Source of the DNA: an uncultured Anaerolineae bacterium
GTDB taxonomy: Bacteria > Chloroflexota > Anaerolineae > Fen-1058
NCBI GenBank assembly: GCA_964651475.1
Contig: CAZYXV010000012.1
Coordinates: 1 to 64,000 of the forward strand
DNA: 64,000 nt
Reading direction: 5' to 3'
Part shown: positions 1 through 50,180 of the stretch, piece by piece
Layout: each line of letters starts with the position of its first letter
Position numbering within the stretch: the first letter of the stretch is position 1
Program-made: the position numbers and the translations under genes
The notes under the pieces: model-generated
Seen by the model: the letters and a program-made list of their open reading frames with translations, nothing else
Database searches by the model: none
What the model was told of the DNA's origin: nothing

Positions 1-1212
1 CGTCATCACCGTGACCATTTCAGCGCCGCGCCGTACTATGGCCTGCCCGGGCGGCATGAGAAGCTCGGCCCCGGGGCTATCCAGGATAACTTGGCTGTCG
101 GTATTGGTGGCCATGGCCAGCGAAACGCGCAAGGGAATGTTGGCCTTGAGCGCGCCGGGGCAGCTATCTACACTGGGGCGCTGGGTGGCCAAAATGCAAT
201 GCACGCCAGCAGCGCGGCCAATGTTTGTGATCTTGATTAGCTCCCTGGCGCAATCGCCGCCGTACTCGTCATCCATCACGAGCATGGCCAGCTCATCCAC
301 CACTAGCGCCAAACGGGGCAGCGTTTCTTCCAGCTCGTCCAGCTTGCGCGCCCCTTGTTCTTCCAGCATCCCGTAGCGTTCCTCGATGGTGTTGCGCAGC
401 GAGCGCAGCAGAATGAGCGCGTCTTGGGCCGTCCTGGCAATCTCGACCGTGTGCGGCAGCTCTGCAAAGAGCGCCAGTTCCACCCGCTTGAGGTCAATGC
501 CGTAAAGCCTCACCTGCTCCGGCTTGTTGCGCGTGCACAGGTCTACCAGCCAGCAGTTGAGCAGGTTGCTCTTGCCCGTGCCGGTTGCGCCGCCCATCAG
601 CATGTGCGGAAAGCCCTCGGCGGCCAGGTTGCTCCATTGCTCGTTGCCGTATGCGTCTACCCCCAGGCGCAGCCACAACCCGCTTTCGGGCGGATAGTGC
701 ATCTCGCTATAGAGAACCTTTTGGGGCAGCTTGGCTTCCTTTTCCACTCTCGGGCTCAGTATCGGCACGTTGCCCACGCACACAAACAGCTTGTGCTTCT
801 TGGGCGATTCGACAATGCGCACATCTGTCCCCAAGATGCGCGATAGATCGCGCTCTACCCTGGGCTGCAAAAGTTTGGCTGGACGCAGGCCAGGGGGAAA
901 GCGATCTATCCGATACATAAAAGCATTTTCCGGCGCAAATCTCCAACTCGCGCCCCACTTGACGCGCAGATACTTGACCCTCCGGTGCTTGCCCTCGCCG
1001 CTCACTTTTTTAACGCGCAGTTCCAGCGTGTCGAACGCCTGGACCAGTTCGGCCTTGACCTCGGCTATGGCGCGCAGGTGCGCGCGCGCCCACACTTCGC
1101 GGGCGTTCAAAAAGCGTTCCGGCAGCAGCATGATCTTGAGACGCTGTAAGGGTGTGAAATATACCCACACTTCCTTATCCCCTGCCGCGTTAGTGGAGTT
1201 TGGGTCGCTCAT
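1..1212 (-). CDS. FtsK/SpoIIIE-family DNA-translocase-like ATPase; start codon at 1212, 3' end beyond the window edge
   Basis: Reverse-strand translation from ATG at 1212 gives MSDPNSTN... with Walker A (MLMGGATGTGKS), Walker B (LALVVDELAML) and an FtsK-like C-terminal motif (ATQRPSVD...KANIPLRVSLA). No N-terminal TM segments seen. Absent from the ORF track because it runs off the edge. Confidence 0.75.
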   Translation of the reverse strand, partial: MSDPNSTNAAGDKEVWVYFTPLQRLKIMLLPERFLNAREVWARAHLRAIAEVKAELVQAFDTLELRVKKVSGEGKHRRVKYLRVKWGASWRFAPENAFMYRIDRFPPGLRPAKLLQPRVERDLSRILGTDVRIVESPKKHKLFVCVGNVPILSPRVEKEAKLPQKVLYSEMHYPPESGLWLRLGVDAYGNEQWSNLAAEGFPHMLMGGATGTGKSNLLNCWLVDLCTRNKPEQVRLYGIDLKRVELALFAELPHTVEIARTAQDALILLRSLRNTIEERYGMLEEQGARKLDELEETLPRLALVVDELAMLVMDDEYGGDCARELIKITNIGRAAGVHCILATQRPSVDSCPGALKANIPLRVSLAMATNTDSQVILDSPGAELLMPPGQAIVRRGAEMVTVMT

Positions 1213-1286
1213 AGATGACCGGCCTCACCCCAGGCCGCCCACCCTAACTCTTCCAAACTCGCTTGCTTGCTCATTTTTCTTTTCCT

Positions 1287-1619
1287 TTCGTAAACAGGCC
1301 TTGATCATTGTTTCGGCCATTTTCACCGCAGAGGCGCAGAGGCCGCCGAGTTTTCAATTGATTTTCCTCTGCGTTCTCCGCGTCTCTGCGGTGCACTTTC
1401 GTAAACAGGCCTTGATCATTGTTTCGGCCATTTTCACCGCAGAGGCGCAGAGGCCGCCGAGTTTTCAATTGATTTTCCTCTGCGTTCTCCGCGTCTCTGC
1501 GGTGCACTTTCGTAAACAGGCCTTGATCATTGTTTCGGCCATTTTCACCGCAGAGGCGCAGAGGCCGCCGAGTTTTCAATTGATTTTCCCCTGCGTTCTC
1601 CGCGTCTCTGCGGTGCACT
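1287..1619. repeat. Tandem direct repeat, 3 copies x 111 bp, near-identical, each with internal inverted repeats (caccgcagag...ctctgcggtg)
   Basis: Unit starting tttcgtaaacaggccttgatcattgtttcggcc recurs at 1287, 1398 and 1509 with period 111. The third copy has 2 substitutions. The arms ccgcagaggcgcagagg / cctctgcgttctccgcgtctctgcgg are mutually complementary. Confidence 0.9.
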
Positions 1620-1666
1620 ACCGCCGCGTGGCCCATAGGATGACCAATGCTCGTAAACAAAAAAAA

Positions 1667-1704
1667 GCGGCGCACACCGAAAGTGCGCGCCGCCTTGCCC
1701 GCAA
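1667..1704 (-). terminator. Intrinsic terminator (GC hairpin + T8 on minus strand)
   Basis: Minus strand reads ggcggcgcgcactttcggtgtgcgccgc followed by tttttttt. Confidence 0.55.
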
Positions 1705-1722
1705 GCCCCCACAAAAAAAGCG

Positions 1723-1760
1723 GCGCACACCGCGTTAGTGCGCGCCGCCCCTACCCAAAT
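1723..1760 (-). terminator. Second intrinsic terminator on minus strand, near-duplicate of the first
   Basis: Minus strand reads gggcggcgcgcactaacgcggtgtgcgccgc followed by ttttttt. Confidence 0.55.
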
Positions 1761-1838
1761 AGGCTGGATCCCTTGGCTTGGCAAAACCATACCGTCAGCA
1801 ACTTGCAGGCTAAATCTCCCCCCAATAGCCAATAACAT

Positions 1839-1863
1839 AAAAAAACGGTAGCATAGCTACCGT
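1839..1863 (-). terminator. Third intrinsic terminator on minus strand
   Basis: Minus strand reads acggtagctatgctaccgt followed by ttttttt. Confidence 0.5.
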
Positions 1864-1870
1864 CTGCAAG

Positions 1871-1898
1871 TTAGAAAAATCCTGACCTGTGGTATAAT
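1871..1898 (+). promoter_or_regulatory. Putative sigma-70-like promoter (TTAGAA-N16-tgtggTATAAT) about 410 nt upstream of the phosphatase gene
   Basis: Extended -10 tgtggtataat at 1888-1898 and -35-like ttagaa at 1871-1876. It would imply a long 5' leader. Confidence 0.35.
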
Positions 1899-2306: not shown

Positions 2307-4709
2307 ATGACGACCAAAGCAGATAATCACGTCAGGTCTTTTGATTCGCCGGGCCTGTCTGGCCAGGCAAGCATTATGCTATCAGGCGCGATGTTGGCGC
2401 TGGCGGTGGTGGTGATGATCGCGCTCCCCGTTCTCACGTGGCGTTGGGCCCAAAATCCCTTTCCCGCCGTATTATTTGGCCCCAGCTATATCGTCAGCGA
2501 CATAACACCCCCCAACCGGGAAAACACTCGTTTGGGGCTGGGCTCGTCCAGTCACCTGGATGCAGTGGACGGCGTCGAGCTAAACGGATCATTTGACCTG
2601 GAGCGATTAATGTCTGGACGCCAGGTTGGAGAACGTGTGACACTTGCACTTACCCGCCCAGATGGCTCCCGCCGCCAGGCGGTGGTTGCGCTGGTCCGCC
2701 TTGGCGCAGTAGATTGGGTCATATACGTGGCGCTGCCCTATCTCATTGGCCTGGTGTACGTCGTCACCGGCGTCTGGGTGTATCGCCAACGCTACAAGCA
2801 CTCTGATGGGCGGGCGTTTGGGGTGTTTTGCGCGGCGGTGGCGATTCTCACCGCTTCTACGTTTGAAAACTCGACTTTGCACATTTTGTCGTGGTTGTGG
2901 TCGGCGTGCGTCCCCCTGGCGGCGGGCGCTATTATTGGGTTGACGCTCGTCTTTCCGCAAGAGATGGCGCCAGCCAAGCGTTGGCCATTCTTGCGCTGGC
3001 TGCCCTACGTTGTGGGCCTGGGCCTGGCGCTCGTGGCGCTGCCGAGCATTTACAACGTGAAGGAGCCGTGGAGTTACGAAACAAGCTGGCGGTGGAGCCT
3101 GGCGTATCTTTTGGCGGGCATTGTATTCTTGTATGCCAGCGTGGGGTATCACCGCCTGCGTTCTCCTGCGCCCCTCGTGCGGCAGCAAACTCGCGTGATT
3201 TTGTGGGGCAGTCTGGCGGCGTTTGCGCCATTGCTTGTCGAATTGGTCTTGCTGATGGCGCCGGTTGTATGGCCTGCTTTGCCATCGCTTATGCTGCCGG
3301 CGCCCATATTTTTGCTGCCGCTGGCATTGTGGCCGCTGGCGTTGGGATACGCCATTTTGCGTTACCGGCTGTGGGATATTGACCTGCTCATCAATCGCGG
3401 CCTGGTGTATGGAACGCTGACAGTCTTGTTGGCCGGCGCCTATTTTCTCTTGTTGGCGGTTTTGACGCCCGCCTTTGTGTGGCTGACCGGACAGGCTGAC
3501 AATGCCACGGTGATTTTTGTGGCGACGGCGACGCTGGCGCTGATTTTCACGCCAGCGCGAGGCGCCGTCCAGGCCGCTATAGACCGCCTCTTTTATCGCG
3601 ACCGCCTTGATTTACGCGCTGCTCAAGGCGAGATCAGCCGCGCTCTAAGCACCACGCTCACGCTCGAACACGTCGTGCAATTGTTAACCGACGATGCGCC
3701 GCGCCGCCTGAGATTGGAACGCGCGACGGTGTGGCTGCACAGCCCCGATGGCCTTTTGCCCCATCCACCCGAATCGCCCGTCGCCGTAGAATCGGCGCCG
3801 CTGCTCGTTCCTCTCGGCAAGCAAGATGTGTATGCCATTGGCATGTCATTGGCGGGCCGTCCGCCCAATCGAGAAGAAGCGGACTTGCTAACCCTGCTAG
3901 GCAACCAGGCCAGTGTGGCGCTGGAAAACGTCCGGCTGGCAAAACAGTTGTCCGACCGCGCCCGCATCGAGCAAGAAATGCGCATTGCCCGCGAAACCCA
4001 GACGAGCTTGCTGCCCACCTCGGCGCCGCAATTTCCAGGCTGGGACATTGCCGGCTACTCACAGCCAGCCAGCGAAGTGGGGGGAGATTTTTACATTTAT
4101 CATCCATTAACAGATGGCAGCCTGGGGATCAGTGTGGGCGATGTATCGGGCAAGGGCATGTCTGCGGCGTTGTTGATGGGCGGCTCGGTTATCGCATTGG
4201 CGGCGCTCTGCCTGGACGATCCTACTCCGGCTGACTTGCTGCGGCGGATGGATCAGGTGCTGCAGCCCTATCGCGGATCAACCGGCCGCAATACGGCCCT
4301 GTGCTACGTGCGCCTGCCTGCGTCTGGCTCTGGTCCGCGCGCCATCCGCGCGGCCAACGCGGGCATGATCGCGCCGTTGGTGCGCCGCGCCAATGGGCAG
4401 GTAGCGTGGCTGGATGTGCGCGGGCTGCCGCTCGGCGCGCCGCGCATCGAAACGCACTATGCCGAGATGAGCGCCACGCTCGAGCCAGGCGACATGATCG
4501 TCATCGCCTCAGACGGCATCATCGAGCGCATGAACGCGGCCGGTGAATTGTTTGGGTTTGAGCGGTTCGAGCAAATGGTGGCTGCCTGCCCCTCCCACGA
4601 GAAGGCGGAACAAATCTGCAGCTTGATTCTTGAGCAGGTGGCGGCCTATGCGGCTTTGCGCGCGCCGCACGATGACATGACGCTGATTGTGGCCTGTGTG
4701 AGAGAGTAA
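2307..4709 (+). CDS. Membrane-anchored sensor with C-terminal PP2C/SpoIIE-type serine phosphatase domain (RsbU-like)
   Basis: 800 aa. The N-terminal half has multiple hydrophobic helices, the middle is GAF-like, and the C-terminus carries GGDFYIY...VGDVSGKGMSAALLMG...IASDGIIE motifs typical of SpoIIE/RsbU PP2C phosphatases. RBS aggag precedes the ATG. Confidence 0.85.
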   Translation: MTTKADNHVRSFDSPGLSGQASIMLSGAMLALAVVVMIALPVLTWRWAQNPFPAVLFGPSYIVSDITPPNRENTRLGLGSSSHLDAVDGVELNGSFDLERLMSGRQVGERVTLALTRPDGSRRQAVVALVRLGAVDWVIYVALPYLIGLVYVVTGVWVYRQRYKHSDGRAFGVFCAAVAILTASTFENSTLHILSWLWSACVPLAAGAIIGLTLVFPQEMAPAKRWPFLRWLPYVVGLGLALVALPSIYNVKEPWSYETSWRWSLAYLLAGIVFLYASVGYHRLRSPAPLVRQQTRVILWGSLAAFAPLLVELVLLMAPVVWPALPSLMLPAPIFLLPLALWPLALGYAILRYRLWDIDLLINRGLVYGTLTVLLAGAYFLLLAVLTPAFVWLTGQADNATVIFVATATLALIFTPARGAVQAAIDRLFYRDRLDLRAAQGEISRALSTTLTLEHVVQLLTDDAPRRLRLERATVWLHSPDGLLPHPPESPVAVESAPLLVPLGKQDVYAIGMSLAGRPPNREEADLLTLLGNQASVALENVRLAKQLSDRARIEQEMRIARETQTSLLPTSAPQFPGWDIAGYSQPASEVGGDFYIYHPLTDGSLGISVGDVSGKGMSAALLMGGSVIALAALCLDDPTPADLLRRMDQVLQPYRGSTGRNTALCYVRLPASGSGPRAIRAANAGMIAPLVRRANGQVAWLDVRGLPLGAPRIETHYAEMSATLEPGDMIVIASDGIIERMNAAGELFGFERFEQMVAACPSHEKAEQICSLILEQVAAYAALRAPHDDMTLIVACVRE

Positions 4710-28978: not shown

Positions 28979-29320
28979 ACGATGATGCAAGTACGCTGCC
29001 AGCACTGTAGAGGAATGTTCACGCTCAGCCGTGACGGGATTGGATTGGCGTTAGCCGAGGCCCAGGCAAAGAATGAGCAATACCACGCTTTCAATTGCCC
29101 GCAGTGCCGTTACGTCGTCAAGCTGCAAATAACCGAACTGCGGCGGCATTTGCCGGCGGATTACGTGTTGCCGGAATGGACGCCTCCTCCACCCGCCGCG
29201 GAACCTGTGCCGGTTGAAAAGCCGCCGGAAGAAAACGCGGCTCCAGCCGAGCCGGCCAGGCCCAAAAGAGCGCCCCGGTTAACCCCCAGCAAATCGCGCA
29301 GACCCAAGAGTAAAAAGTAA
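28979..29320 (+). CDS. Zinc-ribbon protein with Pro/Ala/Lys-rich basic C-terminal tail
   Basis: MMQVRCQHCRGMF...FNCPQCRYVV (CxxC...CxxC) then ...PPPPAAEPVPVEKPPEEN...RPKSKK. RBS aaggag upstream. Confidence 0.6.
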   Translation, partial: TMMQVRCQHCRGMFTLSRDGIGLALAEAQAKNEQYHAFNCPQCRYVVKLQITELRRHLPADYVLPEWTPPPPAAEPVPVEKPPEENAAPAEPARPKRAPRLTPSKSRRPKSKK

Positions 29321-29363
29321 TTTTCCCAAGCTTTTTAAGGGAACTGGATAGGAGAGTAAACAG

Positions 29364-29837
29364 ATGGAGATTCAATGCCCCAACTGCGGTTGGAAAACTG
29401 ACCTGAAGGCCGAACAACTCGTGGCGGCCATCGGCGCTGCCGCGCAAAAGCAGGCCGAATACCATATTGAGCATTGCCCACAATGCCAGTGGGTCATTCG
29501 TATACCGGTGGCGAATATGCAGGCCGTTTTGCCTGTGCCTGAGCCGGCTGCGCCGCAAGCGCCCATTGAAGCACCTGTCAAGAGACCCGCGGCTAAGAAA
29601 CCAGCCGTCAAGAAACCCGTGGCCAAGCCAGTGGCCAAGAAACCAGCCGTCAAGAAACCTGCGGCCAAGCCCAAGCCAGCGGCCAAGAAACCTGCGGCCA
29701 AGCCCAAGCCAGCGGCCAAGAAACCCGCGGCCAAGCCGGCCACTAAGCCTAGACCTAAACCGGCGGCCAAGAAACCAGTCGCCAGGAAACCTGCTGCCAA
29801 ACCAACCGCCAAAAAAGCCAGGCCGGTTGCCAAATAA
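29364..29837 (+). CDS. Zinc-ribbon protein with histone-H1-like (KKPAAKPKPAA)n tail, paralog of the upstream gene
   Basis: MEIQCPNCGWK...EHCPQCQWVI aligns with the upstream protein (QYHAFNCPQCRYVV / EYHIEHCPQCQWVI). The C-terminal 95 aa are AKKPAAK repeats, and the DNA carries a 33-bp direct repeat (29659-29724). Confidence 0.65.
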   Translation: MEIQCPNCGWKTDLKAEQLVAAIGAAAQKQAEYHIEHCPQCQWVIRIPVANMQAVLPVPEPAAPQAPIEAPVKRPAAKKPAVKKPVAKPVAKKPAVKKPAAKPKPAAKKPAAKPKPAAKKPAAKPATKPRPKPAAKKPVARKPAAKPTAKKARPVAK

Positions 29838-29896
29838 CGCCGCCGAATTGTAGTGCAAACCAACTCCCCGAAATAAAGCTTTCGGGGAGTTTATCG

Positions 29897-30523
29897 TCAT
29901 TTGTACAGTTTGTGCTGTGCGATATATGCTTCGACGTCTGGAGGAACAAGGTAGCGGATTGACAGTCCGTGTTGCACGCGGCGGCGAATGTCGCTGGCGG
30001 CGATATCTAGCCACGGCGCATCTATCCACATGATGTGTTCTTGCAGGCCGGGCAATGATTCCTCAAGCTTGGGCAAGTTCAATTCCACGCCAGGGCGGGG
30101 CGCCACTGCGAGCCGCGCCAATGCCACGATGCGATGGGGGTCGCGCCACTTGAAAAGATCGCGCAGCGAATCGGCGCCCATCAGAAAATATAATTCGTGG
30201 TTGGCGTACTGTTCGCGCAAAAGACTCAACGTATCGGCGGTGTAATGCGGGCCGGGGCGGTCTATATCCACGTGCGATACGTCAAAGCCGGCGCGCCCGG
30301 CGAGCGCCAATTGCGTCATCGCCAAACGGTGATGAATGGGGGTGGTGGATTGATCGGCCTTGAGCGGCTGCTGGCCGGCGGGGCAAAATAATACAACTTC
30401 CAGCCCCAGTTGTTCGCGCGCCTGATCGGCCAGCACCAGGTGCCCGATGTGGGGCGGGTCAAACGTGCCCCCCAAGATGCCTAAACGCTTACTGGCGGGA
30501 TTGAAACGAGGTATCATAACCAA
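29897..30523 (-). CDS. nadD: Nicotinate-nucleotide adenylyltransferase
   Basis: 208 aa with GGTFDPPHIGH nucleotidyltransferase motif. Confidence 0.9.
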   Translation of the reverse strand: MVMIPRFNPASKRLGILGGTFDPPHIGHLVLADQAREQLGLEVVLFCPAGQQPLKADQSTTPIHHRLAMTQLALAGRAGFDVSHVDIDRPGPHYTADTLSLLREQYANHELYFLMGADSLRDLFKWRDPHRIVALARLAVAPRPGVELNLPKLEESLPGLQEHIMWIDAPWLDIAASDIRRRVQHGLSIRYLVPPDVEAYIAQHKLYK

Positions 30524-47970: not shown

Positions 47971-48654
47971 ATGATGAGACTCAGTGTGGTGATGCCGGTG
48001 TATAATGAAAAGGATACCATCCGCGAAATTTTGCGGCAGATACGCGCCGTGGGGCGCGCCGACGAAATTATCGTGGTGGACGATGGTTCGACGGATGGAA
48101 CGCGCGATATTTTGCACGAGGAAGAAAAGTGCGGCGATATTATTCTGATCCTGCACCACAGGAACAGGGGCAAGGGCGCCGCCGTCACCACCGGCTTTCA
48201 ACGCGCCACGGGTGATATTGTCTTAATTCAAGATGCTGACCTGGAATATGACCCGCGCGATTATCCTGCATTGGTGCGCCCTATCGAGGAAGGGCGGGTG
48301 GTGGCTGTTTACGGCAGCCGCTTTTTAGGGCCGCGCAAAGCCATGATGTTCTGGCACATGCTGGGCAACCAGTTTCTCACCCTGATCACCAACATTTTAT
48401 TCAATGCTATTCTGAGTGATATGGAAACGTGCTACAAGGTGCTGCGCGCCGATGTGGCCAAGGAGTTGAACCTCAAGTCGCCAGGGTGGGGCATTGACCC
48501 GGAAATCACCGCCAAGGTGCTCAAGCGCGGCCACCGCATTTTCGAGGTGCCCATCAGCTATTACGGGCGCGAATACACCGAGGGCAAAAAGATCACCTGG
48601 CGCGATGGCGTGCGCGTTCTGTGGACCTTGCTCAAGTATCGCGTTGTGGATTGA
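47971..48654 (+). CDS. Family-2 glycosyltransferase, polyprenyl-phosphate sugar synthase-like (Dpm1/GtrB/CsbB-like)
   Basis: 227 aa with SVVMPVYNE, VVDDGSTDGT and QDADLEYDP (DxD) motifs. No C-terminal TM. Confidence 0.85.
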   Translation: MMRLSVVMPVYNEKDTIREILRQIRAVGRADEIIVVDDGSTDGTRDILHEEEKCGDIILILHHRNRGKGAAVTTGFQRATGDIVLIQDADLEYDPRDYPALVRPIEEGRVVAVYGSRFLGPRKAMMFWHMLGNQFLTLITNILFNAILSDMETCYKVLRADVAKELNLKSPGWGIDPEITAKVLKRGHRIFEVPISYYGREYTEGKKITWRDGVRVLWTLLKYRVVD

Positions 48655-48665
48655 GCGAGGGGCGG

Positions 48666-50180
48666 ATGGCGAATGGCGCGCCCCGGCGGCGCTGGGCGAT
48701 GATCTTGCTGTGCCTGGCAGCTTTTGCGCTGCGGCTTGGGCCGCTCTGGGCCAATCGTTTTCACCCTGACGAGGCTTTGTATGCTTCGTGGGGATTACTC
48801 ATTCGCACCGGGCGCGACGTGTGGTTGAGCCGGCAGGGTGTCGATAAATCCCCTCTCTTGTTTTATCTCATGGCGGTGTCTTTTCATTACGTGTGGCGTT
48901 CCGAGGTGGCGGCTCGCCTGCCCGGCCTCGTCGCCGGGACGCTGAGCGTGCCGCTCGTGTTTCAAATATCAAACGCCAAATATCACCCGTCCGGGTGGAT
49001 AGCGGCGGCGCTGGTGGCGTTTTCGCCGTTCGCGATCTTGTTTTCGCCCACGGCGTTTCTGGACCACGTCATGGTGATGCTGGGGTTGGCGGCCTGCGCG
49101 GCGGCGGTGCGTGGACGGGCGGGATGGGCCGGCGTGTTGATGGGCCTTTCGGCGGCGACCAAGCTAACGGGATTGTTATTCTTGCCGCTGGCGGCCGGGT
49201 TATGCGTTCAATCGCCGCATGATGCGCTTCGCACCCTACGCTCTACTGGGCGACTGGCGGCTGGGGTGCTCGGCATCATCGCGCTGGTCATTGTGTGGGA
49301 TCGCGTCAAGGGCGGCACGCCGTTTTGGATGCAGCAGGCTATCAACTATCAGGGGGTGCGCCTCGCGCCGCTGGTCCAGGTTTTCCCCCGCCTGCGCGCC
49401 TGGCTGTCGTTCTTTCCATACTTTTTCGGCTGGCCGGCGCTCGCCGTGATTGGCGGTCTGGCCGCAGCAAATCTCAAATCCCCAATACCTAATCGCCAAT
49501 CCCCATTCCCCAACCCCCAATCCCCAATAACAAACATCAATCTTCCCCATGTATTAGCTTGTTTTGCGCTGTTTTACGTGATCGTTCACACGCTGTTCTC
49601 GTTCGAGCTTTGGGACCGCTACTTGCTGGGATTGGTGCCTGTGATTGCGCTGCTGGCGGGCGAGTGCTTTGCGTCGCTGGCGTCACGCCTCGCACAGCGC
49701 GGCCACAGGTTGGGGCGGATTTTCGTAGAAAAGAGATTGCGTTCATCTGTCATGTGTGGAGTGTGCCTGGTTATTTTGCTCCCCCCTGCGCTGGTGGCCG
49801 CCCGCAGCGGTTATCCCATCGGCGGCGATCACGGCGCGTACGATGGCATTGACCAGGTGGCCGATTACTTGCGCGCGCTGCCCAAAGGCGCGGTGGCCTA
49901 TGACTACTGGCTGGGGTGGGAGTTCAAGTATTATCTGTGGGATGCGCAGGTATACCTGGCTTATTTTCCTACGCCGGACGTGTTACGTGACGACCTGATT
50001 GCCTTTGGCGACGCCTCGCCGCGCTATGTGACTATTCCCGCCTTTGCGGCGGCGCGGCCGGTGCTGGAAGCGATTGACCAGGCGGGCTTTCAAGCCGCGC
50101 CCGTGCTGACCACTGTTAATCGGCGTGGCCAGATTACATTTACGGTGTATAAAATTGAAAGCTCTGCAGCGTTTCGGTGA
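48666..50180 (+). CDS. GT-C fold membrane glycosyltransferase (ArnT/PMT, GT39/GT83-like)
   Basis: Start MANGAPRRRW... Multi-TM, with an N-terminal loop carrying a DE motif (FHPDEALY) typical of the PMT/ArnT family. Contains a low-complexity aatcccca repeat (49470-49545) encoding SPIPNRQSPFPNPQSPI. Confidence 0.7.
   Translation: MANGAPRRRWAMILLCLAAFALRLGPLWANRFHPDEALYASWGLLIRTGRDVWLSRQGVDKSPLLFYLMAVSFHYVWRSEVAARLPGLVAGTLSVPLVFQISNAKYHPSGWIAAALVAFSPFAILFSPTAFLDHVMVMLGLAACAAAVRGRAGWAGVLMGLSAATKLTGLLFLPLAAGLCVQSPHDALRTLRSTGRLAAGVLGIIALVIVWDRVKGGTPFWMQQAINYQGVRLAPLVQVFPRLRAWLSFFPYFFGWPALAVIGGLAAANLKSPIPNRQSPFPNPQSPITNINLPHVLACFALFYVIVHTLFSFELWDRYLLGLVPVIALLAGECFASLASRLAQRGHRLGRIFVEKRLRSSVMCGVCLVILLPPALVAARSGYPIGGDHGAYDGIDQVADYLRALPKGAVAYDYWLGWEFKYYLWDAQVYLAYFPTPDVLRDDLIAFGDASPRYVTIPAFAAARPVLEAIDQAGFQAAPVLTTVNRRGQITFTVYKIESSAAFR

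Follow-up and report, generated by a model that had tools for sequence, protein, structure and literature searches.

The DNA analysed here is a window of 64,000 nucleotides from an uncultured Anaerolineae bacterium (Chloroflexota; assembly GCA_964651475.1, contig CAZYXV010000012.1, positions 1 to 64,000 of the forward strand), which carries, upstream of a gene for a soluble FtsK/SpoIIIE-like ATPase, a tandem array of three hairpin-containing 111-bp units. This array is reasonably likely to consist of a non-autonomous selfish palindrome, similar to miniature inverted-repeat transposable elements (MITEs) or to intervening sequences (IVSs), that belongs to a family linked to GxxExxY genes and has nothing to do with the neighbouring FtsK-like gene. 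The hairpins can be classed as gene-less members of the family of inverted repeats that bracket GxxExxY cassettes, because their interior measures 16 nt and the window encodes no GxxExxY homologue. Conceptually, such elements are a variant of MITE-like or IVS-like selfish palindromes and not a new category.

The three near-perfect 111-bp direct repeats with internal inverted repeats, which had been described in an initial annotation of the sequence, were recovered by Tandem Repeats Finder, by a repeat search and by folding. Tandem Repeats Finder reported a period of 111 bp with 3.0 copies, 99% matches and 0 indels at 1285-1619, and the repeat search placed the copies at 1285-1397, 1396-1508 and 1507-1619 with identities of 100, 100 and 99%. 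The copy number of three comes from a short-read metagenome assembly, in which the exact count of a near-perfect 111-bp tandem repeat is uncertain. Each unit is composed of a 37-bp spacer (1285-1321, 1396-1432 and 1507-1543), a unique sequence that lies outside the widespread element, and of a 74-bp hairpin element (1322-1395, 1433-1506 and 1544-1617); no strand is assigned to either. The hairpin element is an imperfect palindrome of 74 nt, with inverted arms of 27 nt that are 81% complementary and enclose the 16-nt interior (for example 1324-1350 and 1367-1393). In the first copy, the left arm reads TTCAC-CGCAGAG-G-CGCAGAG-GC-CGCCGAG, the loop is TTTTCAATTGATTTTC and the right arm reads CTCTGCG-TT-CTCCGCG-T-CTCTGCG-GTGCA. 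The second copy is identical to the first, and the third contains the single substitution of the array, at about position 1590 in the right arm (CCTCTGCG to CCCCTGCG). The arm 27-mer occurs three times in the window, each time within the array, compared to 0.00 occurrences expected. For either strand of the hairpins, the predicted folding energy is about -41 to -43 kcal/mol (z-scores of about -6.5 to -6.8), and 0 of 200 shuffled sequences were equally stable. The earlier proposal that the repeat is structured and non-coding, and not part of a protein, is supported.

The arms follow a motif that is found in many other genomes. From its outer end, an arm consists of TTCAC and three or four heptamers of the type C-R-C-N-R-A-G (CGCAGAG in the window), spaced at 8-9 nt. 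The exact 19-mer of the arm was present in 17 IMG/VR contigs that differ widely in GC content, the similarity extending over both arms, and a degenerate version of it in at least 120 stretches from GTDB species representatives belonging to at least 12 phyla. The GTDB labels among the matches listed include Chloroflexota, Acidobacteriota, Planctomycetota, Desulfobacterota, Verrucomicrobiota, Betaproteobacteria and Gemmatimonadota, as well as Armatimonadota, Bacteroidia, Binatia, Poribacteria, Desantisbacteria and Heliomicrobium. Arms are also carried by cultured isolates with finished replicons: by Gemmatirosa kalamazoonensis, where they occupy 16 and 7 places on two megaplasmids, and by Sphingobium, Sphingopyxis, Bacteroides finegoldii, Anabaena, Oscillatoria and Scytonema. 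The starting sequence of this DNA-first search was the arm of the window itself, and only the protein-first sample described below is independent of it; gene calls in the loci were made by heuristic picking of the longest open reading frames (ORFs). Within the 64 kb of the window, the arms are confined to the array.

A set of 133 arms gave the consensus TTCAC-CGCAGAG-R-CGCAGAG-RN-CGCAGAG, sometimes with a fourth heptamer, and 106 inverted pairs were found. A separate scan with a looser regular expression returned 112 pairs, with unconserved interiors of 11-549 nt (median 72). Alternative heptamers (CACAGAG, CACGGAG, CGCCGAG, CGCAAAG and CACAAAG) are swapped in both arms together: the dominant heptamer was the same in both arms of an element in 27 of 35 cases, compared to 17% expected, and the arm identity within elements was above that of all 2000 permutations. 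The inverted repeat and the similarity between copies stop sharply at TTCAC, beyond which no flanking sequence is shared. The elements are located 5-40 nt after gene ends, between gene pairs that are tandem (34), convergent (22) or divergent (7). Their interior is typically 11-250 nt long without a gene, and gene-less copies vastly outnumber gene-bearing ones. Besides Gemmatirosa, multiple copies per genome were seen in a metagenome-assembled genome (MAG), of which one locus (L102) holds two gene-less copies that are 87% identical over ~330 bp, with a shared interior of ~300 bp and unrelated flanks. Tandem clusters occur elsewhere, in loci L087, L125 and L131. In the last of these, a truncated derivative of 120 bp (4463-4582) retains, as read by eye, only about 20 N-terminal GxxExxY-like codons between intact arms, and it adjoins a GxxExxY cassette of intact length.

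The link to GxxExxY was obtained from both directions. Among 88 small ORFs next to arms, GxxExxY was the sole recurrent family; its genes abut arms in six of the DNA-first loci (tblastn), and the complete small ORFs present in a few interiors match TIGR04256 (E 7e-43) and PF13366, PDDEXK_3 (E 2e-41). In the protein-first test, metagenomes were scanned with a GxxExxY alignment and the best 80 of 577 relatives were retained. Complementarity between the 5' and the 3' flank (z of at least 4 compared to shuffled sequences) was detected for 61 of the 76 genes for which both flanks were available, and it was almost always of the TTCAC-plus-heptamer type. A full cassette gene has about 125 codons and encodes a minimal PD-(D/E)XK protein, in whose D...ExK motif D64, E74 and K76 are invariant. 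It is wedged between co-directional host genes, in the same orientation as the upstream neighbour in 44 of 52 cases and as the downstream neighbour in 47 of 60, with median gaps of ~60 nt. In annotated isolates, the gene is found between radA and the gene of a FAD-protein (with arms on both sides), between ade and a manC-like gene, and between fabD and fabG. One instance of the latter arrangement comes from a cultured isolate, on a Sphingomonas parapaucimobilis plasmid (L237, 482837-483265); there, an arm of the CGCGAAG type is present upstream only, and the stop codon of the GxxExxY gene nearly abuts the fabG start. The family is very large, as 7,999 of 8,000 candidates scored at E<=1e-10. 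In a 2012 survey of PD-(D/E)XK proteins, PDDEXK_3 was recorded as 'unknown', and several transfers from one division to another were listed for it (PMC3424549). No account of the arms, or of a role for GxxExxY, PF13366 or TIGR04256 proteins, was found in the searchable literature, which is short on subscription journals, and an earlier description is possible.

The array was tied to this family by a hidden Markov model (HMM; nhmmer) of 92 arms flanking GxxExxY genes, all from the protein-first sample and none chosen by way of the window sequence. In the 64-kb window, the model returned six matches with E values from 1.6e-7 to 1e-6, which are the six arms of the array (1.6e-7 and 1.9e-7 for the two arms of the first copy, 1e-6 for the altered arm of the third), and nothing else at E<=10. 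All six are made of TTCAC and at least three heptamers, and each is paired with a second, inverted arm of the same type. The position of the array just after the end of a transcription unit also matches the habit of the family. The autonomous form, with a GxxExxY gene in the interior, is not the one found in the window.

When the unit was compared by BLAST to ~1.3 Mb of family loci, the family matches covered only about unit positions 33-111, and none began before position 33. The closest complete hairpin, from an Anaerolineae MAG, is 87% identical over 71 nt, and the remaining 37 bp of the unit had no match in these loci. A conserved 17-mer within the spacer (unit positions 6-22, with a match in L013) was dismissed as probably due to chance (E 0.15). 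The unit was also without a match among annotated phages. We read the unit as one gene-less element with 37 bp of unique flanking DNA, duplicated twice in place. That this duplication is very recent is shown by the copy identities of 100, 100 and 99% and by the identical spacers; owing to the latter, the array can be traced to a local segmental duplication and not to three separate insertions. Slippage or unequal exchange could have produced the 111-bp duplication. Among the options of the initial annotation, that of a satellite comes nearest to this picture.

According to the mechanism that we propose, the heptamer arrays would be cis sites for oligomers of the putative GxxExxY nuclease, which would copy the unit enclosed by the arms, or move it, with no target-site duplication. 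Gene-less copies would depend on GxxExxY nucleases supplied in trans, and it is probably in trans that the nuclease acts on such arms. The hairpin formed in RNA or in single-stranded DNA (-41 kcal/mol on either strand) would be a by-product that may favour local duplication, and the array, just downstream of a transcription stop, would sit at a harmless site. Taken over the whole family, there is an even chance that the hairpins are the cis-acting ends of undescribed minimal selfish cassettes of many phyla, made up of a gene for a nuclease of ~125 aa and of terminal inverted repeats of phased heptamers, which insert co-directionally into operon gaps and decay into gene-less hairpins. Several observations weigh against these proposals. 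The sequences around the outer ends of the elements examined showed no target-site duplication, and no pair of filled and empty sites was found, mobility being inferred from the multi-copy distribution only. The trans-acting nuclease has to be assumed for the window, which lacks a gene for it. GxxExxY has no PDB relative detectable by sequence, and its AlphaFold2 model is poor (pLDDT 46). The co-orientation of GxxExxY genes with their neighbours would fit a role at the RNA level at least as well as one at the DNA level.

Such a role at the RNA level would make the paired arms the stem of a transcript, which is processed, for instance by RNase III, or which stabilises or insulates mRNAs. In that case, the array would give three consecutive hairpins in the RNA, either within the 5' region of the FtsK-like mRNA or at the 3' end of a transcript from upstream, and would modulate expression or decay. 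We hold this explanation to be unlikely, if a serious one. In its favour, the IVS of Coxiella provides a known analogue (PMC4990558), the hairpins are predicted to be stable whichever strand is folded (-41 to -43 kcal/mol, z of about -6.7), the arms of one element co-vary, the elements lie 5-40 nt past gene ends with the mostly tandem or convergent gene arrangements given above, and the GxxExxY genes are co-oriented with their neighbours. However, where the arms of an element differ, G.U is not in excess of A.C on the coding strand (99 versus 95, p 0.83), and transversion mismatches are common (241), so that the stem is not kept in the way of an RNA stem; moreover, a simple stem needs neither phased heptamers nor a fixed TTCAC end. 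Rfam gave nothing for the whole window at gathering thresholds, and only noise-level miRNA and sRNA matches over 1100-2400 at E<=10. No U-run follows the 74-nt hairpins, which are therefore not intrinsic terminators. Nonetheless, an RNA-level role and mobility at the DNA level are compatible and not mutually exclusive. It would also agree with the excess of gene-less hairpins, with the constant location of the gene between the arms and with the missing target-site duplication that REP-like hairpins of the host came first, the GxxExxY genes being parasites similar to homing endonucleases that insert into the loops and the window showing uninvaded targets; a PD-(D/E)XK fold is known from some homing endonucleases. 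This order of events is nevertheless improbable. The derivative in L131 (4463-4582), in which the first ~20 GxxExxY codons were read by eye, points to the decay of a cassette, near-identical arms in Bacteroidota and Chloroflexota are hard to explain by vertical inheritance, and the two gene-less copies that share a 300-bp interior behave as mobile units.

The initial annotation had placed the array in relation to the gene next to it, as a binding-site array for the translocase or as a partition or transfer-origin site, and such a recognition or loading site would be comparable to the clt/TRS of Streptomyces TraB or to the KOPS of FtsK. The array lies directly upstream of the FtsK-like gene, of which the 5' part (404 codons, positions 1-1212, minus strand, ATG at 1212) is contained in the window before it runs off the left end. 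Its ORF matches PF01580 (E 1e-28) and phrog_1358, and a full-length relative of 506 aa on a different contig (P0001, 95% identical) possesses a C-terminal helix-turn-helix-like tail with a weak KfrA_N match at 431-499. The arms are built of short motifs with a period of ~8 nt, and the KOPS, SRS and TRS motifs are of the same size class. Moreover, the FtsK-like gene probably lies on a mobile element, as discussed below. Against such a function, no FtsK relative was encoded in the 147 arm-bearing loci (1.03 Mb), and no family arms were present in L002, L003 and L148, the three loci that encode relatives of the FtsK-like protein of the window, so that the conserved context expected of a translocase link is missing. 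Arms occur in at least 12 phyla beside unrelated housekeeping genes, and they are statistically associated with a different gene family, GxxExxY, which also speaks against a partition or transfer-origin site. The missing association largely refutes a site for the translocase, which we regard as very improbable, and the array appears to have no specific relation to the FtsK-like ATPase, no link between the two being detectable. Least credible of all, to the point of being nearly dismissed, is a repetitive protein encoded by the repeat. The 111 bp of the unit are divisible by 3, and the ORFs that had been reported to read through it on both strands, 1271-1714 (minus) and 731-1738 (plus), do exist. 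However, the ORF on the plus strand runs antisense to the FtsK-like gene, that on the minus strand begins with a TTG inside a terminator (T2, see below), neither has a credible match to Pfam or to any other family, and the arms elsewhere are found in all reading frames and at non-coding positions.

Other candidates were rejected as well. Plasmid iterons or a replication origin do not fit a unit of 111 bp instead of ~17-22 bp, with inverted internal motifs, a GC content of 53% and no rep gene in view. In a CRISPR array the spacers would differ, whereas here the whole 111-bp period is identical, including the 37-bp 'spacers'. A 23S rRNA IVS was discarded because the window contains neither rRNA nor any Rfam family and the element is intergenic between protein-coding genes. 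No tRNA or tmRNA gene, as a possible integration target, was found in the window.

Several features point to a separate mobile element as the probable location of the FtsK-like gene: a relative with 41% identity adjoins a phage-type integrase amid many small unknown ORFs; the FtsK-like protein has one relative of at least 90% identity in the database, unlike eight other proteins of the window, which have none; and the upstream side of the corresponding locus L231 is not syntenic. To the right of the array, the first syntenic host gene (2307-4709, plus strand; PF07228) encodes a membrane sensor/SpoIIE-type PP2C phosphatase. The closest orthologue found is 66% identical (P0129 in L231, GCA_041740315.1); L231 keeps the downstream POR genes, and upstream it has RpiR, an M50 protease and SOD in place of the FtsK-like gene. 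The family is also represented in the intergenic region upstream of this orthologue (L231, 9773-9846), by a weak hairpin whose arms are of the CACAAAG/CACTAAG type and reach E values of 0.008 and 0.03 with the arm HMM. Exactly at the right end of this hairpin, a Logan contig from the same population (L232) begins, which suggests that the palindromes of the family break metagenome assemblies. In the loci of the FtsK-like relatives, a same-strand terminator directly precedes the gene in L002 and not in L148. The L002 terminator is a strong one, 35 nt before the start codon of the FtsK-like P0002. In the segment from 1620 to 1830 of L002, this terminator comes after a near-consensus promoter (TTGACA-N17-TATCCT) and ~170 nt of unassigned sequence, which could be a small RNA or a leader; no Rfam match was obtained in L002 and L231, the two loci scanned.

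Between the array and the SpoIIE-type gene, the three consecutive hairpin and T-run terminators of the initial annotation were retrieved by the terminator scan, all on the minus strand and all with a GC-rich hairpin followed by a U-run. T1 (1659-1696; stem ~1664-1696) has a GC-rich stem of 15 bp and a run of eight U, with -27.1 kcal/mol on the minus and -19.3 kcal/mol on the plus strand; the array ends ~40 nt downstream of it, in the minus-strand direction. T2 (1713-1752; stem ~1716-1752) has a run of seven U and folds with -26.9 versus -19.0 kcal/mol, and T3 (1839-1865; stem 1843-1865, 10 bp) also has seven U and folds with -13.5 (z -3.9) versus -11.7 kcal/mol. The stems are more stable as minus-strand RNA because their G.U pairs become A.C mismatches on the other strand. 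The stem of T2 is that of T1 (GCGGCGCACAC/GTGCGCGCCGC) with a different loop; the pattern was found exactly twice compared to 0 occurrences expected and also as a direct repeat, and T2 can be considered a local duplicate of T1, whereas the sequence of T3 is unrelated to either. The three are genuine terminators specific for the minus strand. The interval from there to the plus-strand gene at 2307 holds no convincing gene. Two functions can therefore be considered for the terminators: to end a short transcript of the minus strand that is not annotated, or to shield the array and the FtsK-like gene from transcription arriving from the right.

The rest of this region has little recognisable content. 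No homology of 1213-2306 to related loci was found, and 1756-2306 yielded no Pfam match, no Rfam family and no significant folding z-score. On the minus strand, a stop-to-stop frame of 43 codons without a start codon (2126-2260) resembles a C-terminal gene remnant and has no Pfam match. A candidate extended -10 promoter (TGGTATAAT, 1890-1898, plus strand) was noticed by reading the sequence; it faces the SpoIIE-type gene and is absent from the output of the consensus scan owing to a poor -35. Logan contigs (L001/L023) from 11 public runs, in which the SpoIIE-type gene is identical, uniformly end at position 2265 of the window, 42 nt upstream of this gene and short of the terminator and repeat region. 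This common end could be due to variation between strains or to a break in the assembly at the border of the non-syntenic segment.

For the locus itself, the outcome is that a tempting but wrong story, that of a translocase loading site or a transfer origin, is removed. In a wider context, the family is sharply defined and common to Chloroflexota, Acidobacteriota, Planctomycetota, Bacteroidota, Gemmatimonadota, Proteobacteria, cyanobacteria and others, and its arms bracket ~80% of the sampled genes of GxxExxY, an enormous family without an assigned function. That the putative GxxExxY nuclease acts on the heptamer arms is a testable hypothesis. If the cassette reading is true, it gives a role to this very large orphan protein family (TIGR04256/PF13366, 'function unknown') and explains palindromes that are scattered through environmental genomes and break metagenome assemblies. 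The hairpins are also of practical relevance, since they occur inside operons, for instance between fabD and fabG, and since assemblies seem to break near them.

Other short repeats were observed in the window apart from the array. At 24738-24796, between a stop codon and an ATG at 24797, a 12-bp unit (GAGGTTAAGGTT, with a 6-bp GAGGTT/AAGGTT sub-repeat) is present ~4.8 times, so that Shine-Dalgarno-like GAGG/AAGG motifs follow one another immediately before the start of an AMP-binding-enzyme-like gene. Overlapping tandem repeats of 15, 18, 33 and 42 bp (CAAGAAACCAGCGGC...) occupy 29579-29737 in an ORF on the minus strand (29118-30029) that has no Pfam match and probably encodes a low-complexity repeat protein. 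The heptamer AATCCCC occurs in ~7 copies with 77% matches at 49470-49529, inside the ORF of a PMT_2-family glycosyltransferase (48621-50180), where it would encode a Pro/Asn/Gln-rich linker; it resembles the cyanobacterial short tandemly repeated repetitive (STRR) sequences in sequence only.

Among known systems, the IVSs of 23S rRNA genes, for example in Coxiella, Leptospira and Salmonella, are similar to the family in being small selfish inserts with complementary termini and an optional small ORF. In Coxiella, the IVS has a terminal stem of 28 bp and an optional ORF, is excised by RNase III and has spread horizontally (PMC4990558). The sporadic horizontal spread of IVSs and their toleration by position also recall the GxxExxY cassettes, which have the layout arms-ORF-arms and are co-oriented with the host transcript. 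However, IVSs lie within rRNA helices and are excised, whereas the element of the window is intergenic and its stem is only predicted, and the IVS ORF belongs to the four-helix-bundle S23p family, whereas that of the cassettes encodes a PD-(D/E)XK protein. We know of no IVS with arms of phased heptamers and a TTCAC end.

Like the family described here, MITEs have sharp terminal inverted repeats, gene-less copies that are far commoner than others, derivatives with internal deletions and copies with unrelated flanks. They differ from it by the target-site duplication, which is missing here, and by their partners, since the candidate autonomous partner of the family is only a PD-(D/E)XK nuclease of ~125 aa and not a DDE, HUH or serine/tyrosine transposase; in addition, classical MITEs are lineage-specific, whereas the family arms are nearly identical across phyla. 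REP/BIME, ERIC and Correia elements are likewise imperfect intergenic palindromes, usually past gene ends, that fold from either strand and are sometimes clustered. Their taxa are narrow and REP is tied to RAYT (Y1) transposases, whereas the family extends over at least 12 phyla and is tied to GxxExxY (RAYT was outside the search). The Streptomyces TraB-clt system, with its 8-bp TRS, and the FtsK-KOPS and SpoIIIE-SRS systems share with the locus a soluble ATPase of the FtsK family, ending in a DNA-binding tail, beside an array of motifs with a period of ~8 bp. In contrast to them, the arm motif is not associated with FtsK in either direction and is specific neither to an element nor to a lineage. 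The STRR sequences are also heptamer-based repeats in non-coding DNA. They form contiguous 7-bp tandem arrays and are restricted to cyanobacteria, whereas the heptamers of the family are spaced at 8-9 nt, number three or four per arm, always have an inverted partner and are bounded by the TTCAC end.

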